Below, piece by piece: positions 2,183 through 29,144 of a DNA stretch of 39,893 nucleotides. Below the pieces are notes generated by a model that did no database searches, was not told where the DNA came from, and worked only from the letters and a program-made list of their open reading frames with translations. The DNA is from a virus. Position numbers and translations under genes: made by a program. The first letter of the stretch is position 1. Every line of letters begins with the position of its first letter. The stretch is from the UHGV virus genome UHGV-1364246. One strand, 5' to 3'.

Positions 2183-3746
2183 CTTGAGCCATGTCCTCAC
2201 CAGCTACTTGTCCAACAGTAGCGCCCATGTTAGCACCAGCAGCAGACGCACCGTTGACCACAGCTCCTTGAGCGGATTGTTCTGCCATACGTTGCAACTT
2301 CTCGTCCTGAGTCAGCAGCAAACCGGCAGTGTCAATACCTAAGGCATTCAGCAGTCGCAGCTTCAGGGTAGGCAAGTTAATGTCTGGGTCCTGTTGCAGA
2401 GGCTGTAGCCCGGTCATCATGTTTACTGCCTGAGTCAGCTTCTCTAAGTCTTGACCACGACCTAACGCTTCCAGACCAGTGGATACCGTAGGCTCTACTG
2501 CTTCTTTCGGAAGGTCAGGAATCATGCCAGCAGACTGAAGCTGGTTCATCAGTACACGGACGATAGGTAACTGAAGCTCTTGTGACTGCACTGAGTACAC
2601 GCCACCTAAGGTCGCCTCCAGTTCGCCAGCAACATAACGAATCTCTTCAGCAGTGACTCGCTCGGCATTACGCTGAACAGCACTATTAAGAAGGAAGGCC
2701 CAACCTAAACGTTGCTCGATAGCGTCAGCCACCGACTTAGCAATCGTAAAGTCCTGACCTTTCGTCAGTTGCAGGAAGTTGATGTCCTCAACTCGACCAG
2801 CCACGAACTCACCTGTAGCCGCCTTGTTCAGACGTCTAGGTTGCGTGATACCGTTCGGGTTAACGAGGCCCACCACCTTGGAGGCTACCTTAGCCATTTT
2901 GGTGATAGCTTCTGTAATCGTCTCCAGCGAGTTCAGGTCTCCCAGATACTCCTCGCAGTAAGAACGACCGTAGTCTTCACCATCCAGTCGAACCATTCGT
3001 ACCGGGATGTATGGACATGCAGTCAGCGGGTAGGAACCATCGGTCCCTGCCACCTCAATACCTTCCACTTCCTCGTAGCGAAGATACTCGTCGTCCTGAC
3101 GGTAGATGTGCGTATACACTTCAAGCTCGGTGTCAGGCTCATAGTCGTCTGCGTTGAGTTGAGACTTCACGTCTTCCGGTAGAGCACTAAACGCTACCTT
3201 GTCGAGAGTCACAATCTGCAAGATGTTACCGAACGCATCACGTTGAACAACGTAAGACACTAAGCGGTACATTCGCATTGGACTGTAGGTTCCTTGTTCT
3301 GGAGGAGGGATGTAGAGCAGACAGTTACCTGAGACGATAAGCTGCTTCAAAGCCTCAAACAATGGGACACGGAAACTGTTAGTCTCCATGTAGGCCATCA
3401 ACACACGCTCGACCATAGCCAGCCCTTCGTCAACACGAGCAGCCGCCTCTGAGTCCTGACTCAAGGTCTTGGCCTCATATTCGGAGACTGTCAGTCGCAT
3501 CCACGGTGACTGAGGGAATAACGCCAACATCAGCTTTGCAGCCAAGTTGTTCAAGCAGCGAGCACCCACAGCTTGCCACGGCGTCACGTATTCCGTAGAC
3601 GAGTTGTCGGACTCCTTAGGAAACAGTGACGGGATAGTGACAGCCGCACAGTTCTGAGCGCGCGTCTCATATGGCTGTCTACCGTTCTTCAGTCTGTCAT
3701 AAACTGCCTTCGCGCCTTCAGCAGCAAATCCTTCACGTTCAGCCAT
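2178..3746 (-). CDS. Portal (head-to-tail connector) protein, gp8-like
   Basis: 522 aa; MAEREGFAAEGAKAVYDRLKNGRQPYETRAQNCA... closely matches recalled T7 gp8. Confidence 0.9.
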   Translation of the reverse strand: MAEREGFAAEGAKAVYDRLKNGRQPYETRAQNCAAVTIPSLFPKESDNSSTEYVTPWQAVGARCLNNLAAKLMLALFPQSPWMRLTVSEYEAKTLSQDSEAAARVDEGLAMVERVLMAYMETNSFRVPLFEALKQLIVSGNCLLYIPPPEQGTYSPMRMYRLVSYVVQRDAFGNILQIVTLDKVAFSALPEDVKSQLNADDYEPDTELEVYTHIYRQDDEYLRYEEVEGIEVAGTDGSYPLTACPYIPVRMVRLDGEDYGRSYCEEYLGDLNSLETITEAITKMAKVASKVVGLVNPNGITQPRRLNKAATGEFVAGRVEDINFLQLTKGQDFTIAKSVADAIEQRLGWAFLLNSAVQRNAERVTAEEIRYVAGELEATLGGVYSVQSQELQLPIVRVLMNQLQSAGMIPDLPKEAVEPTVSTGLEALGRGQDLEKLTQAVNMMTGLQPLQQDPDINLPTLKLRLLNALGIDTAGLLLTQDEKLQRMAEQSAQGAVVNGASAAGANMGATVGQVAGEDMAQA

Positions 3747-4149
3747 CTACGTGCCTCCATGTTTTACCTGTTAATACGTCAGACAGCGTTCTCCTGGCTA
3801 CTCCCGGATATGCAGAGGTAAGCTCTGTCGCTGTTAGCCCTGACTTTCGTATGGACTTAACATCTTCGGTTGTTAGCTTGGAGTTGTAATGGCTGTCACT
3901 ATGTGGAGCGTTCTTTCTACCTTTGGAAACACAGTCTACCATGTTATCGCTATAAGTACCAACGCTCAGGTGTTCGGGATTGACGCATAGTCTATTGTCG
4001 CAGGAGTGCATCACCACTAGACCTTCTGGTATGGGACCTTTGTGTTTTAGGTAGGACACTACATGCGCTCCACGTAGCTTACCTGCATACCACTTCAGTC
4101 CATATCCAGCATTATTTACGCAGCCCTTATGCAGTATGCAGTCTGTCAT
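3739..4149 (-). CDS. HNH endonuclease (T7 gene 7.7 position)
   Basis: 136 aa; HKGPIPEGLVVMHSCDNRLCVNPEHL HNH motif. Confidence 0.7.
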   Translation of the reverse strand: MTDCILHKGCVNNAGYGLKWYAGKLRGAHVVSYLKHKGPIPEGLVVMHSCDNRLCVNPEHLSVGTYSDNMVDCVSKGRKNAPHSDSHYNSKLTTEDVKSIRKSGLTATELTSAYPGVARRTLSDVLTGKTWRHVDG

Positions 4150-6602: not shown

Positions 6603-6808
6603 AGACAGCCTCCGTGTTGGTTCAGGAACTTGGTGCCAGCAGCGGTAATCTCCCACGCACCGTTGTTACGCCCGTCCATAGACAGGCAGCTAAGATGTCC
6701 ACGACTCGCAGCCTCAGCCACAAGTGCAGCGTTGTTGCGCACATAGTTTGACTGAAAGGTCTTCGGGCAGGACTTAAGGGCCGCAAGGACCCGAAGGTAT
6801 TCACTCAT
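6599..6808 (-). CDS. gp5.7-like protein
   Basis: 69 aa; MSEYLRVLAALKSCPKTFQSNYVRNNAALVAEAASRGHLSCLSM... resembles T7 gp5.7. Confidence 0.7.
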   Translation of the reverse strand: MSEYLRVLAALKSCPKTFQSNYVRNNAALVAEAASRGHLSCLSMDGRNNGAWEITAAGTKFLNQHGGCL

Positions 6809-7104
6809 TGCTTGAACCTCACAGTAGCTGGTGAGACACTGAAGAACTCTGCGTCTGAATACTCCTGTACAGCCTCTTTAATCATTGACCGGAAGCTGTC
6901 ACGCAGAATAAACTCAATCACTGCGTCCATACCTTCCGTCAGCCACAGGGTCAGCATATGGCGCTGCTTAGCGTCTGGATTGATTTCACCTGAGTGAACG
7001 CCTTTAGCCAGATCTCGCAGACCCTTAATGATGAATTCCTCTTGGTCTGTAGGAAGTACAGCCTTAAGGTTGAAACTTACGATAGCGCGTTTGGTCATAG
7101 CCAT
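6805..7104 (-). CDS. gp5.5-like protein (H-NS-binding protein in T7)
   Basis: ATG at 7102-7104 (TAATG overlap with DNAP stop, AAGGAG upstream); MAMTKRAIVSFN...SPATV resembles T7 gp5.5. The ORF-track start at 7122 is an extension. Confidence 0.75.
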   Translation of the reverse strand: MAMTKRAIVSFNLKAVLPTDQEEFIIKGLRDLAKGVHSGEINPDAKQRHMLTLWLTEGMDAVIEFILRDSFRSMIKEAVQEYSDAEFFSVSPATVRFKQ

Positions 7105-9272
7105 TAGTGACACTCCTTCCACGTTGGTCCAATCTTACCTTCGGTATCAAGGACACATTTAAAGTTATAGAACTCACCCACCTTACGCATAGCAAGTTGA
7201 GCAATCCTGCGAATATCTTCGGCAATCTCCATGTTCCGAGCTGCAATCTGCAATTCGTCGTGGACCCATGCCATGTACGCAAAGTCTCCTTCCCAGCCGT
7301 GGACATACCCGGCCTCTTCGAGCATACGTTCAGTCTCTACAATCCAGTGCTTACAGACTACCGCACCATCGCCCTGAAGTAATGCGTTCAGTGCTGAGTG
7401 TGGAGACCGTATGTGGATACGTCGACCATCAAGTCCACGCAACCAACGGCGTTTCCACTTAACGATGTTCTCACCATCTACCCACTTAGAGTCTGATATT
7501 AACGTATTACTCACAGCTTCCCTGAGGTCCTTGATGGCTGGTGTACCCTCAATGAATTTCTTCATGAGAGCTGAACCTTCCTTCTTACCACCGCCGACTA
7601 TCAGTCCAATCTTAGCGGCCCCTGCACCATACAGGAACGCATAGATGAACGTCTTAGCGTTGTTGCGGAAAGCATCATGGTCGTGGCTCGACTTATCGCG
7701 TGGGACGTTAGGTGCTAACCCAGCGTTGACTGCGTTTGCCCAGTGGATGTCACCTTCGACTACAGTCTTCGCATATGCACCACCATCAAACGGAGCCGCT
7801 CGGTTCCCTAGACAACGAAGCTCAAGACCTGAAGCATCCACGCCTACTTGAATCCAAGGGTCTGGCTTGCCATCCTTCTTGTTCCACGCTGCACCGAAAG
7901 CACCACGGCAAGTCTCACCATATGGAGCACCGTTAGCCGGGACCTGAGCCATGTTTGGTGAGCTATGGGTCGCACGTCCTGTTACTGCACCACAAGGGTT
8001 GATTGAACCGTGCATACGTCCGTCTGGACCCACAAGTTTCAACCATGCGTTCTTACCTTCAGCAGCCTGACCGATGCGCTTCTGGACCACAAGATACTCA
8101 CGGACCAACTCTACACAAGCCTGAGCCTCTGCGTCTGGTAACTTAACGTGTTCTAACGTCTCGTCATCGACTACAGGTTTCCCAGTGTCAGTGAAGTCCA
8201 CAGGCTCCCAACCACGCTCCATCAGGACTTTCGCTAAGTGGTCTCCGCTTCCCGGATTAAATTCAACGTAAGTGATTGGCGTGAATGGTGCTCCCTCCAT
8301 CGTGTCTCGCGTATCGAGTTCACAAGGTTCGAGACCTAATCGTTGAGCTTTGTTCTTCGGCTTCTTAAAGATGCCACCGACCTTAGGATACACGACCCTC
8401 GGATACTTCGGAAGGTCCTTACCTGTCCGTGGATGCCTGAAGAACTCCTTGCCTCCCTTTGGTGCATACCAGCTACCGAAAGTAGAGCGCAGCTTGTCCA
8501 GTAACTCCGCACGTTTGACAGTGAGTTCACGATATAAGCCTTCGACCATCTCGGTGTTCATCGGATAGCCGTTACGCTCCATCTTCGCACAGGTCCACGC
8601 AGCATCATGTTCCAGACGCAACGCATAAATCTGTTCGAAAGCGAACTGTTCAGACTGGAAGTAATACTTGTCAGTCAGGAACTTCTTGAACAATGCCAGT
8701 GTGACCACAACGTCCTGAACGTTATAGTCCAGCATCTCCTGAGACGGGAACAACCATTCGTCCCCAGCCTTATATTCGATACCTTCGGCCTTGCACTTGG
8801 CAACGTAATCGTGTTTGTACTCACCCTTCATCTCACCGAGACGATAGCCCCAAGCCTCAAGAGACTGGCGTCCCATCATCTTAGGCGGCAGACGTCCAGC
8901 TTTCACCGCGCCTATGTCTGAGAACTTAATGTTGGGATACATCAAGCGGCCCAGCACCAAGGTATCAATCATCTTGTGTTTCGGGAAGTTAAATCGTTTC
9001 CCAAAGTACAGACGTTTCAGCTTGTCAATAGCCGGGACGTCATAGTTGATACCATTGTGGAATACCAGCATACCATCAGGTGATGCGGCAATCTCTTCCA
9101 CTTTATGAACATACTCTTTGAAGCCACCGACGATACCAACCATCGGAGCTACCCCATACTTAAGGGTCTCATTCGACTCGGCGTTAATCAGGACCCCGCA
9201 GTGGAACTGGGAGACTGTATCAAGGAGACCGTTGGTCTCGATGTCAGACCCATATACGTTACTTAAGTCCAT
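7104..9272 (-). CDS. DNA polymerase (gp5-like, family A with 3'-5' exonuclease)
   Basis: 722 aa; MDLSNVYGSDIETNGLL... exo motif; syntenic; size close to T7 gp5. Confidence 0.92.
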   Translation of the reverse strand: MDLSNVYGSDIETNGLLDTVSQFHCGVLINAESNETLKYGVAPMVGIVGGFKEYVHKVEEIAASPDGMLVFHNGINYDVPAIDKLKRLYFGKRFNFPKHKMIDTLVLGRLMYPNIKFSDIGAVKAGRLPPKMMGRQSLEAWGYRLGEMKGEYKHDYVAKCKAEGIEYKAGDEWLFPSQEMLDYNVQDVVVTLALFKKFLTDKYYFQSEQFAFEQIYALRLEHDAAWTCAKMERNGYPMNTEMVEGLYRELTVKRAELLDKLRSTFGSWYAPKGGKEFFRHPRTGKDLPKYPRVVYPKVGGIFKKPKNKAQRLGLEPCELDTRDTMEGAPFTPITYVEFNPGSGDHLAKVLMERGWEPVDFTDTGKPVVDDETLEHVKLPDAEAQACVELVREYLVVQKRIGQAAEGKNAWLKLVGPDGRMHGSINPCGAVTGRATHSSPNMAQVPANGAPYGETCRGAFGAAWNKKDGKPDPWIQVGVDASGLELRCLGNRAAPFDGGAYAKTVVEGDIHWANAVNAGLAPNVPRDKSSHDHDAFRNNAKTFIYAFLYGAGAAKIGLIVGGGKKEGSALMKKFIEGTPAIKDLREAVSNTLISDSKWVDGENIVKWKRRWLRGLDGRRIHIRSPHSALNALLQGDGAVVCKHWIVETERMLEEAGYVHGWEGDFAYMAWVHDELQIAARNMEIAEDIRRIAQLAMRKVGEFYNFKCVLDTEGKIGPTWKECH

Positions 9273-14063: not shown

Positions 14064-14086
14064 CTGTCCTACAGTGATAGTTTAGG
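14064..14086 (-). promoter_or_regulatory. Phage RNAP promoter (phi2.5-like), CTGTAGG variant
   Basis: Minus-sense CTAAACTATCACTGTAGGACAG; overlaps the gp2 stop codon. Confidence 0.65.
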
Positions 14087-14240
14087 TCTCAGGACGAATC
14101 CGTCCAACCACAAACCCAGCGTCCTCATACTCTTGGGACTTCAGGGTAGCCTCTTCAAGAGACTTTGCGTACACCGGAACATCGAAGGACTGAACGCGAC
14201 CCTCAAGCTCCACGATGTATTTCTTCTCAACCTCAGTCAT
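14082..14240 (-). CDS. Host RNA polymerase inhibitor (gp2-like), 52 aa
   Basis: Translated by hand (under the ORF-track size cutoff): [52 protein letters not shown]; resembles recalled T7 gp2 (SFEVPIYAETLDEA...AGFEVTRVRP). Confidence 0.7.
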
Positions 14241-14318
14241 AGACCGCGCTCCTTCCATTGGTTATATAACGTAATGTAGTCCGGGTTGAGAGTCTTCTCA
14301 TACATCTCCCGGCACCAC

Positions 14319-15082: not shown

Positions 15083-15115
15083 GCAAAGAAACCCAGCAGT
15101 CCTAAGACCACTGGG
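15083..15115 (-). terminator. Putative early terminator (TE-like) for host RNAP
   Basis: Minus-sense CCCAGUGG-UCUUAGGA-CUGCUGGG hairpin followed by UUUCUUUGC; sits where T7 TE lies relative to the ligase. Confidence 0.5.
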
Positions 15116-15121
15116 TTGACG

Positions 15122-15583
15122 TTATAATGAATCTCTTAAGGCTACTGCCTCTGCTATGGTATCTAACGTACCGTATGACTTACGCTTTATCCGCAGTTGC
15201 CAGCGACCAGTCCTTGGCTCAAAGTTAACGTACTTCTCACCAGACTTGCAGTGGCTACGGACGGCGACGTTTGTCAGGTTCACTGCCTGAGTTACACACC
15301 TTAGGTTCTCAATTCGGTTATCAGAAGGGTCTCTGTTTATATGGTCAATAACCATTCCTTCCGGTATCTTACTGTGAGTTAGTTCCCAGACTACCCGGTG
15401 TGCAAGGATCTGACCTTTGGTTGTGTTTATAATCCAGTAGCCATCCTTGCGTCGATAGCCTAAGTGTTTACCCTTCAGGTTGGCGACTCCCGAAGGAGCC
15501 GTCCGGTCAACCTTAAATCTTGACTGTAGGATTGTCCTCAGTTCCTCGCCACTGGTCGAATGACGGATGTCGCAAACTTCCAT
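15122..15583 (-). CDS. HNH endonuclease with AP2-like DNA-binding region (free-standing homing-endonuclease-like)
   Basis: 153 aa; HRVVWELTHSKIPEGMVIDHINRDPSDNRIENLR; ATG at 15581-15583 with GGAGGAG upstream; 5' end overlaps the last 71 nt of the ligase gene. Confidence 0.75.
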   Translation of the reverse strand: MEVCDIRHSTSGEELRTILQSRFKVDRTAPSGVANLKGKHLGYRRKDGYWIINTTKGQILAHRVVWELTHSKIPEGMVIDHINRDPSDNRIENLRCVTQAVNLTNVAVRSHCKSGEKYVNFEPRTGRWQLRIKRKSYGTLDTIAEAVALRDSL

Positions 15584-16574
15584 CTGGTGTCTCCTCCATG
15601 TAGGTAATCTGACAGGCCCACCCTTTGTAGTAATCTGGGTCTGACTTTACGTTCTCTGTGAACTCGGACATAAGGGCGCGACTAATGTTAGTTGCGGAGA
15701 CCTCCATCCCGTTCTCAAGCATAACGTCGAAACCAATTACTAGACCTTCGTTGGCGAGACCTTCGGTTCCCCATACTGGTCTAACAACGTGACCATCCGC
15801 CTCTTCGCTTGGCTTCATTTTCCACATGCCTGACTTCTTGCCACGCTTGTATTTACCCAGTGGGTCCTTGACTACCAGACCCTCGTGTCCTTCCAGACGC
15901 TTCTGTTCGTACAGGGAGTTGAGCGACTCAAGGTCATAGACCGTGTGTGACTCAGACAGAACCCAGTCGATTTCCGGGAAGTATTTCTGGAGGAGAGGGA
16001 CGATAGCTTCGGCCTTCAGGCGTGTGACGCTATGGATAGGACCTTCAGCTTTCGGGTCGTTGATGACGTTAAGGTCAACGATACCGTAGACAACCACGCG
16101 GATGTGGTCGGTTGCCAGATGGAAAGGGACCTTATGCTTCTTCTTGGTGTCTATGTCAGCATCGGGGTTGCCATTCCAAGCGTAGTTCTTAGTGTCTGAC
16201 CACACGGTACGGACTAGACCTGAGGAAGTGTTGAAGTCGGTTGCAGGAACCATGACCTCACCATCTATCATCAGGCCAGTGCCTTCGTAGCCAGCTTGCT
16301 TCAGGAACCATAGCCAGTCAGACGCATTGAATGGGTGAGGGTCTGCTACCTTATAGTCTCCTGCTGAGGTTGACAACCAGCTCAACGCTGGAAGCTCTTT
16401 AGACTCACGGCTTAACCATTTGGTCTCACCAGTTGGGAAGACCGGTAGGTTCAACCGGACACCATCGTACTTCACTTCAGCTTCCAGAGACCCAGCAGCT
16501 TCCAAAGCCTTCTTAACGCCAGACTCAGAGTAATCTACAGCTCGGTGCGGGTTGGTTTTGATAGTCGTAGTCAT
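15513..16574 (-). CDS. ATP-dependent DNA ligase (gp1.3-like)
   Basis: 353 aa; adenylation motif EVKYDGVR; syntenic. Confidence 0.9.
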   Translation of the reverse strand: MTTTIKTNPHRAVDYSESGVKKALEAAGSLEAEVKYDGVRLNLPVFPTGETKWLSRESKELPALSWLSTSAGDYKVADPHPFNASDWLWFLKQAGYEGTGLMIDGEVMVPATDFNTSSGLVRTVWSDTKNYAWNGNPDADIDTKKKHKVPFHLATDHIRVVVYGIVDLNVINDPKAEGPIHSVTRLKAEAIVPLLQKYFPEIDWVLSESHTVYDLESLNSLYEQKRLEGHEGLVVKDPLGKYKRGKKSGMWKMKPSEEADGHVVRPVWGTEGLANEGLVIGFDVMLENGMEVSATNISRALMSEFTENVKSDPDYYKGWACQITYMEETPDGSLRHPSFDQWRGTEDNPTVKI

Positions 16575-16825
16575 TATTTCCAGCTCCTATAAGCATTCAG
16601 TTGCTGTAAGCACCATTGCTCACAGTTAAAGATTTCGTGTTCGGTAAACTCGCGGGAGACCAGAGGCTTCCCACCGTCTGCTTCAATGATGCGGACCAGC
16701 GTTGTGCGGGAGCATGGTAGGTCATCCATTCGGACCTCAAGTCCTGCCAAGCTCATCTCGCGGTGTGTCCGGCCCAACGATGACCACTGGCTCGTGGACG
16801 CATCAAATAACCAACGTCTGCTCAT
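16574..16825 (-). CDS. gp1.2-like protein (dGTPase inhibitor in T7)
   Basis: 83 aa; ends ...AYRSWK like T7 gp1.2 (...DWK); syntenic. Confidence 0.65.
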   Translation of the reverse strand: MSRRWLFDASTSQWSSLGRTHREMSLAGLEVRMDDLPCSRTTLVRIIEADGGKPLVSREFTEHEIFNCEQWCLQQLNAYRSWK

Positions 16826-16828
16826 GCC

Positions 16829-17008
16829 TTATGCTCCTACGAAGTATTTCTCTTGGTTTACCATAGAGTCTTTGCCTTCAGCGTTACGGAAAGCACCCTT
16901 GACACCACCGCCACGCTTGGTCTTGTTCAGCTTGCGGCCCTTCGGAATGTAACCTTCAGTCTTCTGACGTTCACGGATGCGCTCGAAGTTGATAGTGTTC
17001 TGATACAT
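16829..17008 (-). CDS. gp1.1-like small basic protein, 59 aa
   Basis: Translated by hand: MYQNTINFERIRERQKTEGYIPKGRKLNKTKRGGGVKGAF...; GRKLNKTKR motif as in T7 gp1.1. Confidence 0.65.
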   Translation of the reverse strand: MYQNTINFERIRERQKTEGYIPKGRKLNKTKRGGGVKGAFRNAEGKDSMVNQEKYFVGA

Positions 17009-17040: not shown

Positions 17041-17089
17041 AGGGTTAATCATGAAGGCCACGACTCTGAGTCATGACCTTGAGTCTAAT
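17041..17089 (-). ncRNA. RNase III processing element (R1.1-like) between the promoter and gene 1.1
   Basis: Second copy of the ATCATGAAGGCCAC...ATGACCTTGAGTCTA element. Confidence 0.6.
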
Positions 17090-17108
17090 CCTATAGTGAT
17101 AGTTTAGG
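17086..17108 (-). promoter_or_regulatory. Phage RNAP promoter (phi1.1-like)
   Basis: Minus-sense CTAAACTATCACTATAGGATTAGA. Confidence 0.75.
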
Positions 17109-17183
17109 GTTAACCTCTTCTGCGTTGGATTAAAGTGAATACTGCGAGTGCTCCCAGCCACAGGGCCAGTAACTGTAGGTCTG

Positions 17184-17384
17184 TCATTTGGTTGCCGCCT
17201 CTTTAAGGGCTTGCTCGTGCATCAGCTCCACCTGCTTAACCAGCCACTTGAATTTGACGTTAAGCTGCTTTGACATCTCGGTAGGAATGACCGTGGTCTT
17301 CACCAGACCCTTGCTGTTGTGTTCTGTTACGGTCACAATTTGAGTCCCACCCTTAACGCCAGTCTGCTTGTGTGCAAATTTCAT
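17184..17384 (-). CDS. Hypothetical 66-aa Lys-rich protein immediately downstream of the RNAP gene
   Basis: ATG at 17382-17384 with AGGAGAGAGAG upstream; no T7 gene at this position. Confidence 0.5.
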   Translation of the reverse strand: MKFAHKQTGVKGGTQIVTVTEHNSKGLVKTTVIPTEMSKQLNVKFKWLVKQVELMHEQALKEAATK

Positions 17385-17398
17385 AACTCTCTCTCCTG

Positions 17399-20080
17399 TT
17401 AAGCGAATGCAAAGTCTGAAGACAAGATGTCTTCGATATTCAGTTTACCTTTCTTCGGAAGCTCAGGCAACTTGTCGCGCTGACTCTCGTGAAGCTGGTA
17501 TTCGAACTGCTCGTAGAAGTCAAGCAGTACATCGTTGTCGCGGTAGGTCTCGACCATTGTCTCACGGACGCCACGGAACAGATACTCAGCGTCAGCCGGG
17601 ATGGTCCCGAAGCTATCGTGAATCACTGCGAATGACATCACACCATACTTGCGGTGCGTGTGGACTACAGTCTTGCGGAGGTGGCTGCCATCTTGTGAGT
17701 GGACGAAGTTCGGGCTAATGCCTGACTCCTGCTTGTGCTTGTCTAGCTCTTTCTTCGTGCCTTTGTTGACTGTAGGCTGAAGGTTGAATGACCCTAAGAA
17801 CATCAGGTTCAGACGAGTGGTATCCTTCTTGCGGTATTCCTGCCAGACCGGGAAACCATCAGGTGTGACCCAGTGTACTGGAAGGCAAGGCTTCAGGATT
17901 TCACCAGTCTTCTTGTCCTTCACTTCAGCAGCCAGCAGCTTGGCAGCACCTTGAAGCCACTTCATCGCGTCAACCGCAGCAACTACGGTCACACTCACAG
18001 CTTCCCAAATCATCTTAGCCATGAAGCGAGACGCTTGTCTTGGTTCAGTGAACATAGAGCCAGACCCTGAGTCAATCGCTGGCATCACGATGTCCTCGTA
18101 CACTTGGTCTGCGAATCCGTACTCTTTCGACCCGTAGGCCAGAGTCATGACCGAACGCTTAGTTACCTTGCGTGACATGCCGTAAGTCAGCCACTGCCTG
18201 GCCAGCTCTCGTGTCCCCAGCTTGAGGCGCTCGGTAATCTCACCAGTTTTCTTATCCTCGTGAGTCACCATCTCGTTGTCCGTACCGTTAACCAGCAGGA
18301 CTTTAAGCTCCTCCTCAATGCGGTCAGACACGATGCGGTAGATGTCTTGGACCTTACCGGAAGGCGTCAGGTTTACTGCATGTCCACCTATGTGGTCTCG
18401 AAGCATCGCGCTGAAGTGCTGAATCCCAGAGCAGGACCCATCGAAAGCTATCGGCAGCGAGCAGGAGTAAGACAAACCGTGGTGCATTACGCCAGCATAC
18501 TCGAAGCAGAACGCTAGGAAGCAGAACGGAGAGTCTAACTTACCCCACCACTCAATGCTGTCCATCGGTGCCTTAGCGGTAGCCATGATGTTGTCGTGGT
18601 TGTCTTCCACCCACTTGATGCGCTCCTCGAAGGTGACTTTATCAATACCCGCACAGTTTGCACCGTGGACCTTCAGCCATTTGAAACCATCAGCACCAAT
18701 AGGCTTACCGACTGCCAGAGTTAGGAGACCCTTCTGCATGTCGTTACCCTGAGGGTTGAACATCGGCACAGCGTAGACGCGACCACGCCAGTCCATGTTG
18801 TACGGGAACCAGATGGCCTTGAACTGAGAGAACTTGTTCGCTTGGTTAACGATAAAGCTCAGCGACAATCTGCGTGACTGTCGGGCCTTCTCTCGGCGGT
18901 AGATACCAGCAGCAGCCTTCTTCCATTCCTTGAGTTCCTCTTCAGTCTCACCCGCATAGTCTTCAGGCTTCAGCGGCTCCATCTGAGGGATGTCATCAAT
19001 AGGCGTGTTGTTCAACTTCTCTACCATGTTCACCACGTCCAGAACCTTCTTGTTCACCTTCCAAGGCGTATTCTGGATGATATTCACAGCGTCATAGACT
19101 TCAGGCATGTACACGTCTTCATAACGTGCCACCGCAGACTTAGACCCTAAGCGAATCAGTGGTAGTGGTCTGCGACCTTTGGCCCAGTACCCACCTCCTA
19201 CGACACCAGTCCACGGCTTAGGTGGAACGACACAGGGCTGGTAGACTGGAGCGATACCCGCAAGGCTGAATCCTCGTTGTGCCATCTTCTTGACCCAGAA
19301 GTCTGACAGGTGGACCATCTCGACATCAGCCGCTGCATTGCCAGCACCGTAACGCTTAAGCTCGACCAGTTGTGTTGACTGGATGACAATCTCAAGCATC
19401 TTGATTCCAACGTGGACAGCCTCGGTCGGACTCCAAGTTCCCCACGCATCTTCAAGTTGGCCTTGCTCCAGCATGGAGGTCTCAACAGCTTGCATGTAGG
19501 CTTTTTTGTAGGATGCCCCGGCGCGCTTGTTCAGGTTCTCAGCTATCGCCTTCTTGAAGTGCTCCTTCTCCTTATCACGGATGCGACCGAAGCGGATTTC
19601 ATCCTCAAGTGTGCGACCTATCGCGGAGGCCATCGGTGTAATCGGTATCCCTTCAGGCTTGACCAGCTTGGAGAGGATGACCTTCAGTATGATGACCGCA
19701 GCAGACTCACAGGAGATGCGCAGAGAGCGGTCCTTGACGGCCTTCTCTTCAGTGCTCAACATGGTGAACGCTACGCTAGGACGAGAGGTTGACAGCTTAC
19801 CGTCTGGACCTTCGTGCCACTCCTTGACGGCTTGCGCAATCTTAGGGACCAGAGTCTGCATCAAAGGCTTGGCGACCTGATTGTCTGCCAGTTCCCCGCG
19901 CTCAGTCTGTCGCTCAAGGTTCTTGATGAAACGTCGCTCGCCTTCAGTGTATGCCTCATGCTCAAGCTGAAGCTGTTTGACTGCAAGGTCTTGCCCGTAG
20001 TGGTCAGCCAGCAGGTTAAACGGCTCAATGGCGTTCGACACATCAGAGAAGTCGTGTTTGTCAATAGAGATGACGCTCAT
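17399..20080 (-). CDS. DNA-directed RNA polymerase, single-subunit (T7 gene 1-like)
   Basis: 893 aa; collinear with recalled T7 RNAP (PYNMDWRGRVYA, DGSCSGIQHFSAMLRD, HDSFGT, C-terminal FAFA); specificity-loop region reads LMFLGSFNLQPTVN versus T7 LMFLGQFRLQPTIN. Confidence 0.97.
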   Translation of the reverse strand: MSVISIDKHDFSDVSNAIEPFNLLADHYGQDLAVKQLQLEHEAYTEGERRFIKNLERQTERGELADNQVAKPLMQTLVPKIAQAVKEWHEGPDGKLSTSRPSVAFTMLSTEEKAVKDRSLRISCESAAVIILKVILSKLVKPEGIPITPMASAIGRTLEDEIRFGRIRDKEKEHFKKAIAENLNKRAGASYKKAYMQAVETSMLEQGQLEDAWGTWSPTEAVHVGIKMLEIVIQSTQLVELKRYGAGNAAADVEMVHLSDFWVKKMAQRGFSLAGIAPVYQPCVVPPKPWTGVVGGGYWAKGRRPLPLIRLGSKSAVARYEDVYMPEVYDAVNIIQNTPWKVNKKVLDVVNMVEKLNNTPIDDIPQMEPLKPEDYAGETEEELKEWKKAAAGIYRREKARQSRRLSLSFIVNQANKFSQFKAIWFPYNMDWRGRVYAVPMFNPQGNDMQKGLLTLAVGKPIGADGFKWLKVHGANCAGIDKVTFEERIKWVEDNHDNIMATAKAPMDSIEWWGKLDSPFCFLAFCFEYAGVMHHGLSYSCSLPIAFDGSCSGIQHFSAMLRDHIGGHAVNLTPSGKVQDIYRIVSDRIEEELKVLLVNGTDNEMVTHEDKKTGEITERLKLGTRELARQWLTYGMSRKVTKRSVMTLAYGSKEYGFADQVYEDIVMPAIDSGSGSMFTEPRQASRFMAKMIWEAVSVTVVAAVDAMKWLQGAAKLLAAEVKDKKTGEILKPCLPVHWVTPDGFPVWQEYRKKDTTRLNLMFLGSFNLQPTVNKGTKKELDKHKQESGISPNFVHSQDGSHLRKTVVHTHRKYGVMSFAVIHDSFGTIPADAEYLFRGVRETMVETYRDNDVLLDFYEQFEYQLHESQRDKLPELPKKGKLNIEDILSSDFAFA

Positions 20081-20149: not shown

Positions 20150-20172
20150 GAGTCCTATAGTGATAGTTAAGT
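20150..20172 (-). promoter_or_regulatory. Phage-type promoter about 75 bp upstream of the RNAP gene (TTAACTATCACTATAGGACTC)
   Basis: Matches the -17..+2 core; GGA start as in this phage's class-II promoters; followed by a half R-site motif GACTCAAGGTC. Confidence 0.5.
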
Positions 20173-20177
20173 AAGAA

Positions 20178-25430: not shown

Positions 25431-25595
25431 TTACACCTCCTTAGGTTCAAACCACTTAGATGGGAACATACCAATGTACCGTCCTCCCCTAATATGCACA
25501 TAGGAGTCAATGTCTTCAAGCGAGTCCACCCAGTAGACTGAACCCACCTCAAGAATCCCATTTGAGTCAGACTTTAAGCATTTAACTCTAATCAT
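25431..25595 (-). CDS. Hypothetical 54-aa protein between spanin and terminase (no T7 counterpart)
   Basis: Translated by hand: [54 protein letters not shown]; GAGGGAG upstream; its stop TAA lies inside the terminase SD. Confidence 0.5.
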
Positions 25596-26037
25596 TGCTC
25601 TCCCTCTCTTGCTGTAAGGATCTCACAGTGTCCTGAAGCGCCTTAATCCACTTGTCTCCTTTCAGTCCGATGGCGATAAGACGTTTAGCATCTCGTTCGT
25701 CAAGTTCGGCGTAACCATCAATGACGCATCGACCGTCACTTTGCGTGGTTCCACTCGTAGGTTTGACTCGGATGCGCAGCCGCTTATTGTCAGACTGAAG
25801 GTCAGCAATAATCCTGTCAGTGCTGCCTTCCAGCGAGGACATTTCGTCCTGAAACCGTTTGGACACCTTGTTGACTTCAGCTTGGACAGCAAGTCTTGTA
25901 TCCTCCGATGCCTTAAGATTCGAGGTGTATTCTGCATTGACCTTAGCCTCCCACTTATTGTTAGCGGTGTGATAGCCACCAGCAAACATCACTGCTGCAA
26001 GTAACCACGGAGCCGCTCTCTTTAAAAATTCGAGCAT
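25588..26037 (-). CDS. i-spanin (gp18.5 / Rz-like)
   Basis: 149 aa; N-terminal transmembrane segment AAPWLLAAVMFAGGY then coiled-coil-like region; syntenic; contains an embedded frame with a lipobox. Confidence 0.75.
   Translation of the reverse strand: MLEFLKRAAPWLLAAVMFAGGYHTANNKWEAKVNAEYTSNLKASEDTRLAVQAEVNKVSKRFQDEMSSLEGSTDRIIADLQSDNKRLRIRVKPTSGTTQSDGRCVIDGYAELDERDAKRLIAIGLKGDKWIKALQDTVRSLQQERESND
25662..25937 (-). CDS. o-spanin (gp18.7 / Rz1-like lipoprotein) embedded in the i-spanin gene; start uncertain
   Basis: +1 frame within the i-spanin gene encodes a basic n-region, hydrophobic AALTGLLLTFSLT and lipobox ISGC; first in-frame ATG is far upstream of the signal peptide. Confidence 0.45.
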   Translation of the reverse strand: MQNTPRILRHRRIQDLLSKLKSTRCPNGFRTKCPRWKAALTGLLLTFSLTISGCASESNLRVEPRKVTVDASLMVTPNLTNEMLNVLSPSD

Positions 26038-26957: not shown

Positions 26958-29144
26958 TTAAAAAGTAGCACCCCTCCATGAGCAATCAACAATCCCACCG
27001 CGCACCATCTTCCACCGCATGTTGTACGATGCCGATGGTACAAGGCGGAGTCCTATTCCCAGATTCGGTGTCAGCTCGACCGCATTTATCCAAGCAGTTG
27101 ATGAGGTTGAAAATGTAAAAGATAGCTGCTCCGTATTTGTGTAAAAATCATCAACGCAAGTTGTTATTGATGCTGTAGTATTTGCAGTATCCGCGCCGTT
27201 AAAATAATACAGCTCAACAGCCACGTACCCGTGGTTCTTCATCCTTGTAGCAAACACGCCTCCGGTGTTTCTTGCCGCGATACCACCCTGTTTGAATGTG
27301 GTGTTACGCTCTCCCTGTGCGCTCCCGGCATTGATAGTCTGGAATGGTGTGACATCGGCGGAACTGTACTTGTCATTGTACAACTGCATAGCCCCACCCA
27401 TTCTATCCGTGTAAAATGCGTACACATCTATGTCATAAGGTTTTTGTCTAGGTACAGAATTGAATTCTTTCCCTAAAGCGTACAAATCAGTATCGGTGGT
27501 CAATGTGTTGTGTGTGTTTACGATGAGCTGTGTTTCCCACGAGAACGCCGCATACTCACCATCGCCCATGTTAAAAAACTTCTTAGCGAAAGCTATCTGT
27601 TTTGCTTTGTTTTTGAAGTTGTCAGAACCACCATTTGCATCAGTTGTAAACAATCCAACGCAAGGTACAATTCTTGATGTAGGGCATTTATACTTTAGCT
27701 CGGCCCACCCAATAACAGCCTGTCGTTTATTCCTGGCATCATCCCAGTCATCATGATAATACGCGTCTGCAAATATAATATCGTATCCAGTACCATCATA
27801 ACCGCCCGGGTGTGTATTTGAATCAAATCCAAAAATACCATGTTCAGCTATGCATAATGATTTTTCTGTGAATGATTTAAATGCCGCGATGCGGGTTTCT
27901 TGCGCCGCCCTGCTAACTGAATTATTTTGTGGTTCATCAAACAAATAATAGCCGATAACACAATCTCTACTGTCTAAGTCGGTAGCCGGAGTGTTTGTCT
28001 GTCCATATATTGGCCCACCAAGTATAAGTTTAAGCCCAACAGCTTCGGCGGCGTTACAGGCTTTTTCCATATTCCCACCGCTTGTCCACGCTTGTCCGTA
28101 GTGTATTAGCGTATTAAACCCGGCAGTTTTTAGTTGTAACATATCACATATATCAAACACGCGATGGACATATACAGCCTTCATGAGCGAATGATTTACA
28201 GGGGTTTCACTGTCAAGCTCACAAGGAACGTTTGGTAGCCTTGTGTATGTGATGGCGGCCTTTCCTGTCAATCTGGCTCCTTCAGGCCAATCAAAACTCG
28301 ATAATGTCGTGGCACCGGATATGTGTGCGTACCCGTGGTCCGATATAGCTGATAGAACCGCGTCTTTACCATCAACACCACTACCATAAACATACCCGTA
28401 ATTAGAGATGTCTGCGCGGTCTAAATTTAATCGTTGTTGAACAGTTAATCCGTTATTAGTCCCAACTAAATTGGAACCATTATTTGTTTTAAGTGCGCTT
28501 CTTAATGAAGCATCACCAACACTAACCCACGCACCTAATCCAATCCCACCGGAAGTTTCAGGAGTTGAACCAGCAGGAACGTTCTTTGGAAGCGTACCAC
28601 CCCAGCGGTAATAATCACCATCCTCTTCCCATAGCAGGACCTCGTTCCATGTTGTAACGTTGAAGCCTTTCTCGAAGGAGCGACGGGTAATATAGCCAAA
28701 TAGACCAGCTGCCTTGATACTCTCAGCAATTCGTCGTGCTTCGTCCTCGCTATCCTTAGCGTTGCCAGCAGAGCTACCAGCAGCATCGGCATATTCCTTC
28801 GCTAAGTCAACCGTTTGGTCTCGACCTTCTTCTGCAATATGGATAGCCTGAAGCTCTGCATTGGTCAGGTCACTAGCTGTCAACACTGAGCCATTCCTGA
28901 AGTCTACCACTAAGTCAGTTCCAGTCTGACGGTGAATACGAACGATGTCGAAACCTGATTGGTCAACCAACATCTCAATCATCGTTGGATTAATGAATCG
29001 GTAATCTCGACCAACTTCCAGTACACGGTTCAGGGTAGGGTTAGAGCTATTCACCAGCGTAACAACAACAAACGTTCTGGCTAGGTAGTCGAACTCAATC
29101 CTGTACTGAGTGTTTCCTGAAGGGAATTGTGTAATCGTGGACAT
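26958..29144 (-). CDS. Tail fiber / tailspike: gp17-like N-terminal adaptor fused to a glycoside-hydrolase-like (putative polysaccharide depolymerase) C-terminal region
   Basis: 728 aa; the N-terminus (up to about LVDFRNGSVLTASDL...AIHIAEEGRD) matches the T7 gp17 anchor; the remainder is unrelated to T7, with a TIM-barrel-like YLFDEPQ motif; coding DNA from about 27000 to 28500 is visibly AT-richer than the rest of the genome. Confidence 0.8.
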   Translation of the reverse strand: MSTITQFPSGNTQYRIEFDYLARTFVVVTLVNSSNPTLNRVLEVGRDYRFINPTMIEMLVDQSGFDIVRIHRQTGTDLVVDFRNGSVLTASDLTNAELQAIHIAEEGRDQTVDLAKEYADAAGSSAGNAKDSEDEARRIAESIKAAGLFGYITRRSFEKGFNVTTWNEVLLWEEDGDYYRWGGTLPKNVPAGSTPETSGGIGLGAWVSVGDASLRSALKTNNGSNLVGTNNGLTVQQRLNLDRADISNYGYVYGSGVDGKDAVLSAISDHGYAHISGATTLSSFDWPEGARLTGKAAITYTRLPNVPCELDSETPVNHSLMKAVYVHRVFDICDMLQLKTAGFNTLIHYGQAWTSGGNMEKACNAAEAVGLKLILGGPIYGQTNTPATDLDSRDCVIGYYLFDEPQNNSVSRAAQETRIAAFKSFTEKSLCIAEHGIFGFDSNTHPGGYDGTGYDIIFADAYYHDDWDDARNKRQAVIGWAELKYKCPTSRIVPCVGLFTTDANGGSDNFKNKAKQIAFAKKFFNMGDGEYAAFSWETQLIVNTHNTLTTDTDLYALGKEFNSVPRQKPYDIDVYAFYTDRMGGAMQLYNDKYSSADVTPFQTINAGSAQGERNTTFKQGGIAARNTGGVFATRMKNHGYVAVELYYFNGADTANTTASITTCVDDFYTNTEQLSFTFSTSSTAWINAVELTPNLGIGLRLVPSASYNMRWKMVRGGIVDCSWRGATF

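Follow-up and report, generated by a model that had tools for sequence, protein, structure and literature searches.

A small basic protein gene downstream of the RNA polymerase gene of Kayfunavirus phages: conservation, allele exchange and a possible role in host interaction

The stretch of DNA analyzed here (39,893 nucleotides, hereafter the window) represents a K1F-like podovirus (Kayfunavirus, Autographiviridae/Studiervirinae); it is a complete genome in permuted form, and its genes lie on the minus strand. A 1-kb query around the ORF under study matched 264 phage records at 80–96% identity, led by Escherichia phages TM1, ZH4 and ST31 and Citrobacter phage CR44b. Gene 1, encoding an 893-amino acid T7-type single-subunit RNA polymerase (RNAP), occupies positions 17399..20080 (minus strand). 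Its TAA stop codon (17399..17401, minus strand) is followed by CAGGAGAGAGAGTT and then by the ATG of a 66-codon ORF (17184..17384, minus strand, stop included), with a 14-nt spacer that holds a Shine-Dalgarno sequence, AGGAG (17393..17397, minus strand), 8 nt before the start codon. The ORF encodes MKFAHKQTGVKGGTQIVTVTEHNSKGLVKTTVIPTEMSKQLNVKFKWLVKQVELMHEQALKEAATK, a basic protein of 7.4 kDa with 11 lysines among its 66 residues (16.7%), a pI of 9.9 and a net charge of about +6. Its TGA overlaps the ATG of a 25-amino acid micro-ORF (17110..17187, minus strand), whose own stop lies inside a consensus phage RNAP promoter, TTAACCCTAAACTATCACTATAGG (17090..17113, minus strand), at a place where a predicted promoter is also annotated in CR44b. 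Since the following gene, a 59-amino acid ORF (16829..17008, minus strand), matches Pfam Phage_1_1 (PF08200; 41 bits against a 21-bit cut-off), it is the equivalent of gene 1.1 and the promoter is justifiably called phi1.1. A sequence-only reading of the window had described a small lysine-rich gene with a strong Shine-Dalgarno sequence between the RNAP gene and the phi1.1 promoter, and this description holds in each of its parts.

By itself, a 66-codon ORF is unremarkable in a 40-kb genome – the window holds many spurious ORFs of similar length, as would suit a frame open by chance, whether a spurious ORF or part of a non-coding element. Conservation lifts this ORF above chance. In a large protein collection, a single-sequence search (E ≤ 0.01) retrieved 151 clusters at 90% identity, a profile search retrieved 191 and separate searches with the diverged branches retrieved 28; tallied another way (151 + 28 + ~12), the family comprises ~190 clusters. 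Nearly all clusters are exactly 66 amino acids long, with C-terminal extensions (71–81 amino acids) in a few members, such as those of K1F and EcoDS1. When 1.84 billion cluster representatives were scanned exhaustively with an HMM, about seven small relatives came up; the other matches were long repetitive proteins aligned through many short stretches, which we judged spurious.

Across 11 phage loci, omega for the ORF was 0.23–0.35 in all comparisons (Nei-Gojobori), variable sites were distributed 39/28/59 over codon positions 1/2/3, with an excess at third positions, and the reading frame was the sole sense frame open in all 11 relatives. A Shine-Dalgarno sequence, AGGAGA or AAGGAGG, is kept in every one of them. 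The invariant length, an omega well below 1, the third-position bias, the conserved Shine-Dalgarno sequence and an AlphaFold model with a pLDDT of 91 from a diverse alignment (see below) all speak against a chance ORF, a reading that the conservation analysis effectively refutes and to which we assign a negligible probability. Lack of conservation had been named in advance as grounds for abandoning the gene, and the opposite was clearly found. On these comparative grounds, the 66-codon ORF is a genuine protein-coding gene. Literature searches found no ribosome-profiling, proteomic or experimental data on its product; on gp1.05, gene 1.05, K1F early genes and Kayfunavirus anti-defence they found genome tables and no functional work.

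The gene is not new. A profile search, one of the checks that the sequence-only reading had proposed, gave an end-to-end match to PHROG 8082, a family of 'unknown function' (E 2.4e-38, residues 1–66 on profile positions 1–66 of 66), and the gene is annotated as 'hypothetical' in ~220 Kayfunavirus genomes, including K1F (gp06, YP_338095.1), ST31, SH4, GA2A and GW1. The synteny of PHROG 8082 – after a T7-type RNAP gene and before gene 1.1 – is that of the window, and the members from K1F (gp06), CR44b and EcoDS1 share both family and post-gene-1 position with the window copy and differ in nothing essential. The CR44b member was named 'gene 1.05' by its position (CDM21534.1), and the 71-amino acid EcoDS1 member (AS9_0008) is labelled 'gp1.1'; these labels are positional or mistaken and do not reflect homology. 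The window copy is 74–94% identical to members of what we call allele type A (see below) and is one more such allele, being 100% identical to a protein encoded on a 39,948-nt metagenome contig.

By tblastn, the gene was found in 221 of 50,697 phage records, all of them of Kayfunavirus type; the additional records matched by the 1-kb query, mostly from Klebsiella phages, match gene 1.1 only. By these searches, the gene is near-universal in Kayfunavirus and confined to that genus. Every genome examined has it downstream of the RNAP gene, even those with the most diverged homologs: P0137 (~40% identical) directly follows a T7-type RNAP gene, and P0123 (44%) follows a T7-type RNAP gene and an inserted 86-amino acid ORF. 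Two records with unexpected host names, MT350292.1 ('Enterococcus phage EFA-1') and OR786095.1 ('Staphylococcus phage MBBL139'), are Kayfunavirus genomes that carry the gene (77–80% identity), and their host labels are probably wrong.

The sequence-only reading had set this arrangement against that of T7, where it saw only promoters between gene 1 and gene 1.1. In the T7 record, phi1.1A and phi1.1B are indeed the only features annotated there, but the contrast is not surprising: the ORF is normal in its genus, and T3-like phages have a different gene, 1.05, at this position. Given these genes and the CR44b- and EcoDS1-type annotations, it is ordinary outside T7 itself for an ORF to separate gene 1 from gene 1.1. 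The Studiervirinae phages T3 and phiYeO3-12 also encode their gp1.05 there, but this is an unrelated protein of ~90–165 amino acids (PF25755, Phage_T3_1_05); none of 48 sampled members of the 66-residue family matched this or any other Pfam family at E ≤ 10. In relatives carrying both genes, the PF25755 gene is downstream of the 66-codon gene and the micro-ORF, and in relative L015 PF25755 matches a separate 164-amino acid gene.

No other family assignment emerged, and no relative of known function was detected. Neither the single sequence nor a 48-member profile found a match among Pfam, NCBIfam and PDB sequences, and the family profile gave 0 matches to PDB chains at E ≤ 10. T7 gp1.1 (PF08200) did not match this ORF, matching instead the neighboring ORF at 16829..17008. 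The Gp2-type host RNAP inhibitor of T7 (PF16857, RNA_pol_inhib) did not match either, and the protein is basic where a Gp2-like protein should be acidic. Neither a Pfam AP2 match nor a strong structural match, with basic and aromatic residues on the sheet, pointed to an AP2-type DNA-binding domain. T7 gp1.2 showed no sequence or profile similarity (hhalign probability 1%). The window has gp2-like and gp1.2-like genes of its own, apart from this ORF. An ORF at 14082..14258 resembles T7 Gp2 by eye; at the equivalent position, the annotations of relatives show a Gp2-type host RNAP inhibitor. The gp1.2-like ORF (16574..16825, minus strand) matches PHROG 6515, dGTPase inhibitor (E 4e-35); it had no phmmer match to the solved T7 Gp1.2 and no acceptable tblastn match in ten related whole genomes. 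The locus is known to vary, and the window carries a rare allele of it. No Rfam family was found anywhere in the window.

We next considered when the gene would be expressed. No terminator-like hairpin was found on the minus strand between gene 1 and the 66-codon ORF, and the first good one downstream – a 12-bp hairpin with a T-rich tail after the ligase region (15090..15117, minus strand) – is likely the early terminator TE that closes the host-transcribed unit holding the ORF. The EcoDS1 annotation places TE at this point, after gene 1.3, and three host promoters at the left end of the genome. Taken together, these features argue that gene 1 and the ORF are co-transcribed by the host RNAP. 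The earlier proposal of co-transcription with the RNAP gene from host promoters was sound in this respect but incomplete, as a phage promoter lies directly upstream of gene 1 (20154..20176, core 20154..20167, minus strand) and is also annotated in CR44b and EcoDS1. With this promoter in place, the phage RNAP should transcribe the ORF too, driving gene 1, the ORF and the micro-ORF. Judged by its promoters and terminators, the small protein should be made from both early host-RNAP and phage-RNAP transcripts.

The position of the upstream promoter would also imply positive autoregulation of gene 1; we know of no equivalent promoter in T7. The 14-nt core of the phi1.1 promoter occurs in nine exact copies in the window, all on the minus strand, and with up to three mismatches at 13 sites, against 3.1 expected in shuffled sequences. 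At the 5' end of the phi1.1 transcript is a 12-bp hairpin (17054..17080, minus strand; z = -2.3 against shuffles) that may, like R1.1 of T7, be an RNase III, processing or stabilizing structure. The leader that follows the gene 1 promoter starts with the motif GGACTCAAGGTC, similar to this hairpin. Close to TE, a 153-amino acid ORF (15122..15583, minus strand) overlaps the 3' end of the ligase gene; by eye, it resembles an HNH endonuclease with an AP2-like C-terminus. Its presence in only some relatives (34–49% identity) makes it probable that a mobile homing endonuclease has been inserted ahead of the early terminator.

The micro-ORF encodes MTDLQLLALWLGALAVFTLIQRRRG, with a single predicted transmembrane helix (mean Kyte-Doolittle hydropathy 2.2 over residues 4–20) followed by a basic C-terminus. 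Its junction with the 66-codon gene reads AAATGA in the window, and start and stop overlap in every genome examined (ATGA, or GTGA in L015). It is intact in 11 of 11 loci with mostly synonymous changes, and its pN/pS of 0.24, together with a dS of 1.0 against a dN of 0.12 between types, indicates purifying selection. Searching with its 78 nt by blastn identified 222 phage records, essentially the set that carries the 66-codon gene; tblastn with the 25-residue peptide gave no match. In L015, where the DNA is heavily diverged, a GTG-start version (3702..3779), (V)TDNQLWLTLWSAFLITFIVFQRRRG, keeps the hydrophobic core and the QRRRG tail. The micro-ORF is mostly unannotated: GA2A lists it explicitly as a CDS (78 nt), and a few other records list a second hypothetical protein there.

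These features raise the question of whether the two small genes work together, for example as an inner-membrane module for superinfection exclusion or for interference with a membrane-bound host system. The start/stop overlap, the shared set of ~221–222 phage records, the purifying selection on the micro-ORF and the retention of its core and tail in L015 are what such a module would display. The peptide, however, does not co-vary with the allele of its neighbor – type C alleles of the 66-codon gene carry the type A peptide, at 96–99% nucleotide identity – and for this reason functional linkage is only possible. In addition, only about five basic residues of the peptide would be left in the cytoplasm to contact a cytoplasmic protein that is itself basic, and ATGA overlaps are common between unrelated neighboring genes in T7-type genomes. 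We regard a two-gene membrane module as improbable. A further version, a Kayfunavirus-specific two-component early module whose hypervariable soluble partner serves as the specificity determinant for anti-defence or host targeting and is exchanged as a precise cassette, seems to us equally doubtful.

The surroundings of the gene pair are variable in their own right. Extra ORFs of 76–86 amino acids lie between gene 1 and the 66-codon gene in EcoDS1 (locus L002, 1918..2148) and L015 (3227..3487), and the PF25755 (T3 gp1.05-type) gene of L015 (3786..4280) lies between the micro-ORF and gene 1.1. TM1, GA2A and GW1 have an ORF of similar size there (loci L003 1696..2175, L005 1780..2253 and L007 1781..2248), a likeness to the L015 gene that is one of size and place. 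Both junctions of the pair are thus insertion hot spots. Hardly any nucleotide varies in the last 24 nt of the micro-ORF (17110..17133, minus strand; TTAATCCAACGCAGAAGAGGTTAA), even when allele types with differences elsewhere are compared, which suggests a further constraint – either AGAGG acting as the Shine-Dalgarno sequence of the next gene, in relatives with a gene directly after, or a promoter-upstream or RNA element.

The 66-codon gene itself is an island of divergence. Comparing Salmonella phage ST35 and Kayfunavirus AN17P1 with the window, we found 92–98% nucleotide identity over the last 1.5 kb of the RNAP gene and 96–97% over the 78 nt of the micro-ORF, but only 54–56% nucleotide and 42–45% amino acid identity over the ORF. 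Divergence sets in immediately past the RNAP stop codon and stops at the final codons of the ORF, and the flanks are 92–99% identical in nucleotides. For the same genome pairs, dS was 1.6–2.4 in the ORF against 0.18–0.24 in the RNAP tail. Within an allele type, omega was ~0.3 for the ORF against 0.02–0.09 for RNAP; for gene 1.1 it was ~0.04–0.11 in eight of nine comparable pairs and 0.26 in the ninth, a value that comes from only six differences. At the protein level, the ORF has evolved 6–10 times faster than its neighbors.

Its alleles fall into at least three types, deeply diverged from one another – A (window, K1F, CR44b), B (GA2A, GW1) and C (ST35, AN17P1, BHUENT8); Pectobacterium and Kosakonia phages carry further branches. 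In the ten whole genomes compared, none of 44 other window genes tested co-varied with allele type. Among genes present in all ten, the ORF is one of the most diverged, along with ORFs at 6805..7122 (gp5.5 region) and 25588..26037 (spanin-like); for the gp1.2-like and tailspike-like ORFs, these genomes gave no acceptable match. For the latter, a 728-amino acid ORF in the tail fibre/tailspike position (26958..29144, minus strand), this is expected of a host-range module. The gp5.5-region ORF (105 amino acids, minus strand), which is 31–40% identical in seven relatives and 90% in three, is another allelic locus.

Alleles of the 66-codon gene have thus been swapped precisely between conserved flanks and independently of every other phage gene tested. 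The gene behaves as an exchangeable accessory cassette, which is unexpected for a regulator tied to the phage RNAP or to phage sequences that are conserved. This pattern bears on the notion that the protein is an accessory factor of the phage RNAP, a modulator comparable in logic to T7 lysozyme. Such a role would fit the position of the gene downstream of gene 1 in every genome examined, the most distant homologs included, and the promoters that the two genes share. Yet alleles only 42–50% identical stand beside RNAPs that are 98–99% identical in protein and 92–98% in nucleotides, and such pairings of diverged alleles with near-identical RNAP genes argue that the protein does not co-evolve with RNAP. 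Other ORFs have also been inserted between gene 1 and the ORF in EcoDS1 and L015. An RNAP accessory role is therefore very unlikely in our estimation.

To gain insight into what the protein could do, we turned to its predicted structure, the other check proposed at the outset. An AlphaFold model built from type A sequences only reached a pLDDT of 72; adding the diverged alleles raised this to 91.2, with a pTM of 0.72. The better model is a compact fold of three beta strands (residues 2–10, 13–22 and 25–34) followed by two helices, one short (35–40) and one long and amphipathic (45–65). The predicted fold is confident but non-diagnostic. A Foldseek search of viral models with the first model (pLDDT 72) found nothing at E ≤ 0.001. 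The nearest solved structures have LptE and type III secretion class I chaperone folds, sharing an antiparallel sheet of three strands packed by a helix, with superposition over 57–64 residues at 1.7–2.9 Å. The structure of Gp1.2 was not among the 60 matches listed for the better model. On the whole, we consider the fold searches uninformative.

Conservation within the family adds some detail. H5, V19 and K39 are invariant, and G12, G13, V17, T18, G24, K25, K29, P34, K46, H56, E57 and L60 are further conserved positions. We weighed a His/His/Glu metal site (H5, H56, E57) but dropped it, since the family has no third or fourth ligand that is conserved. A basic pI (9.1–10.75) is shared by all 48 sampled members, and this conserved positive charge fits nucleic-acid binding as well as protein binding. 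Binding to phage or host DNA or RNA, with modulation of transcription, RNA processing or replication near gene 1 and phi1.1, is accordingly a reading to be weighed; we think it unlikely, though less so than a membrane module.

We tentatively prefer to read the product as an early, non-enzymatic protein whose binding to a host component would serve take-over of the host or anti-defence; this reading, drawn from sequence and analogy, has in our view slightly less than an even chance of being correct. The protein would bind a host macromolecule stoichiometrically and without catalysis early in infection, its target being either a component that the phage takes over or one of a defence system, and turnover of its alleles would reflect variation in that target. 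An exposed, partly hydrophobic face of the beta sheet, together with H5, K25, K29, K39, K46, H56 and E57, would be the likely contact or dimerization surface. The small class I/II host take-over proteins of T7-type phages, early and middle (Gp0.4, Gp1.2, Gp2, Gp5.5 and Gp5.7), serve as a model for this role rather than as relatives, as Gp1.2 shares no sequence or profile similarity with the protein and the Pfam families of these proteins did not match it.

The sequence-only reading had offered an early regulator or a host-interaction factor as alternatives. Because the protein evolves 6–10 times faster than its neighbors, undergoes allelic replacement and has no co-varying phage gene, the evidence leans toward host interaction over regulation of the phage's own genes, though it proves nothing. 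The lack of a co-varying gene, seen in ten genomes only, argues for a partner that is either non-phage or invariant. A dispensable gene under relaxed constraint can also evolve fast, with no arms race involved.

As it stands, the protein is one more conserved hypothetical phage protein, to which this analysis newly adds a sharply bounded allelic replacement, a basic character in all members examined, a conserved overlapping transmembrane micro-ORF and a confident predicted fold. Kayfunaviruses (K1F, CR44b, Salmonella Typhi phages and others) are therapeutic and typing phages with unstudied early accessory genes. This gene, expected to be expressed along with RNAP and among the most diverged of those shared by the ten genomes, comes near to being a signature of the genus, and such a profile is typical of host take-over and anti-defence genes. 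If binding to a host or defence component proves true, allele type could help predict host range or sensitivity to defence, and the protein could be a new small inhibitor scaffold.
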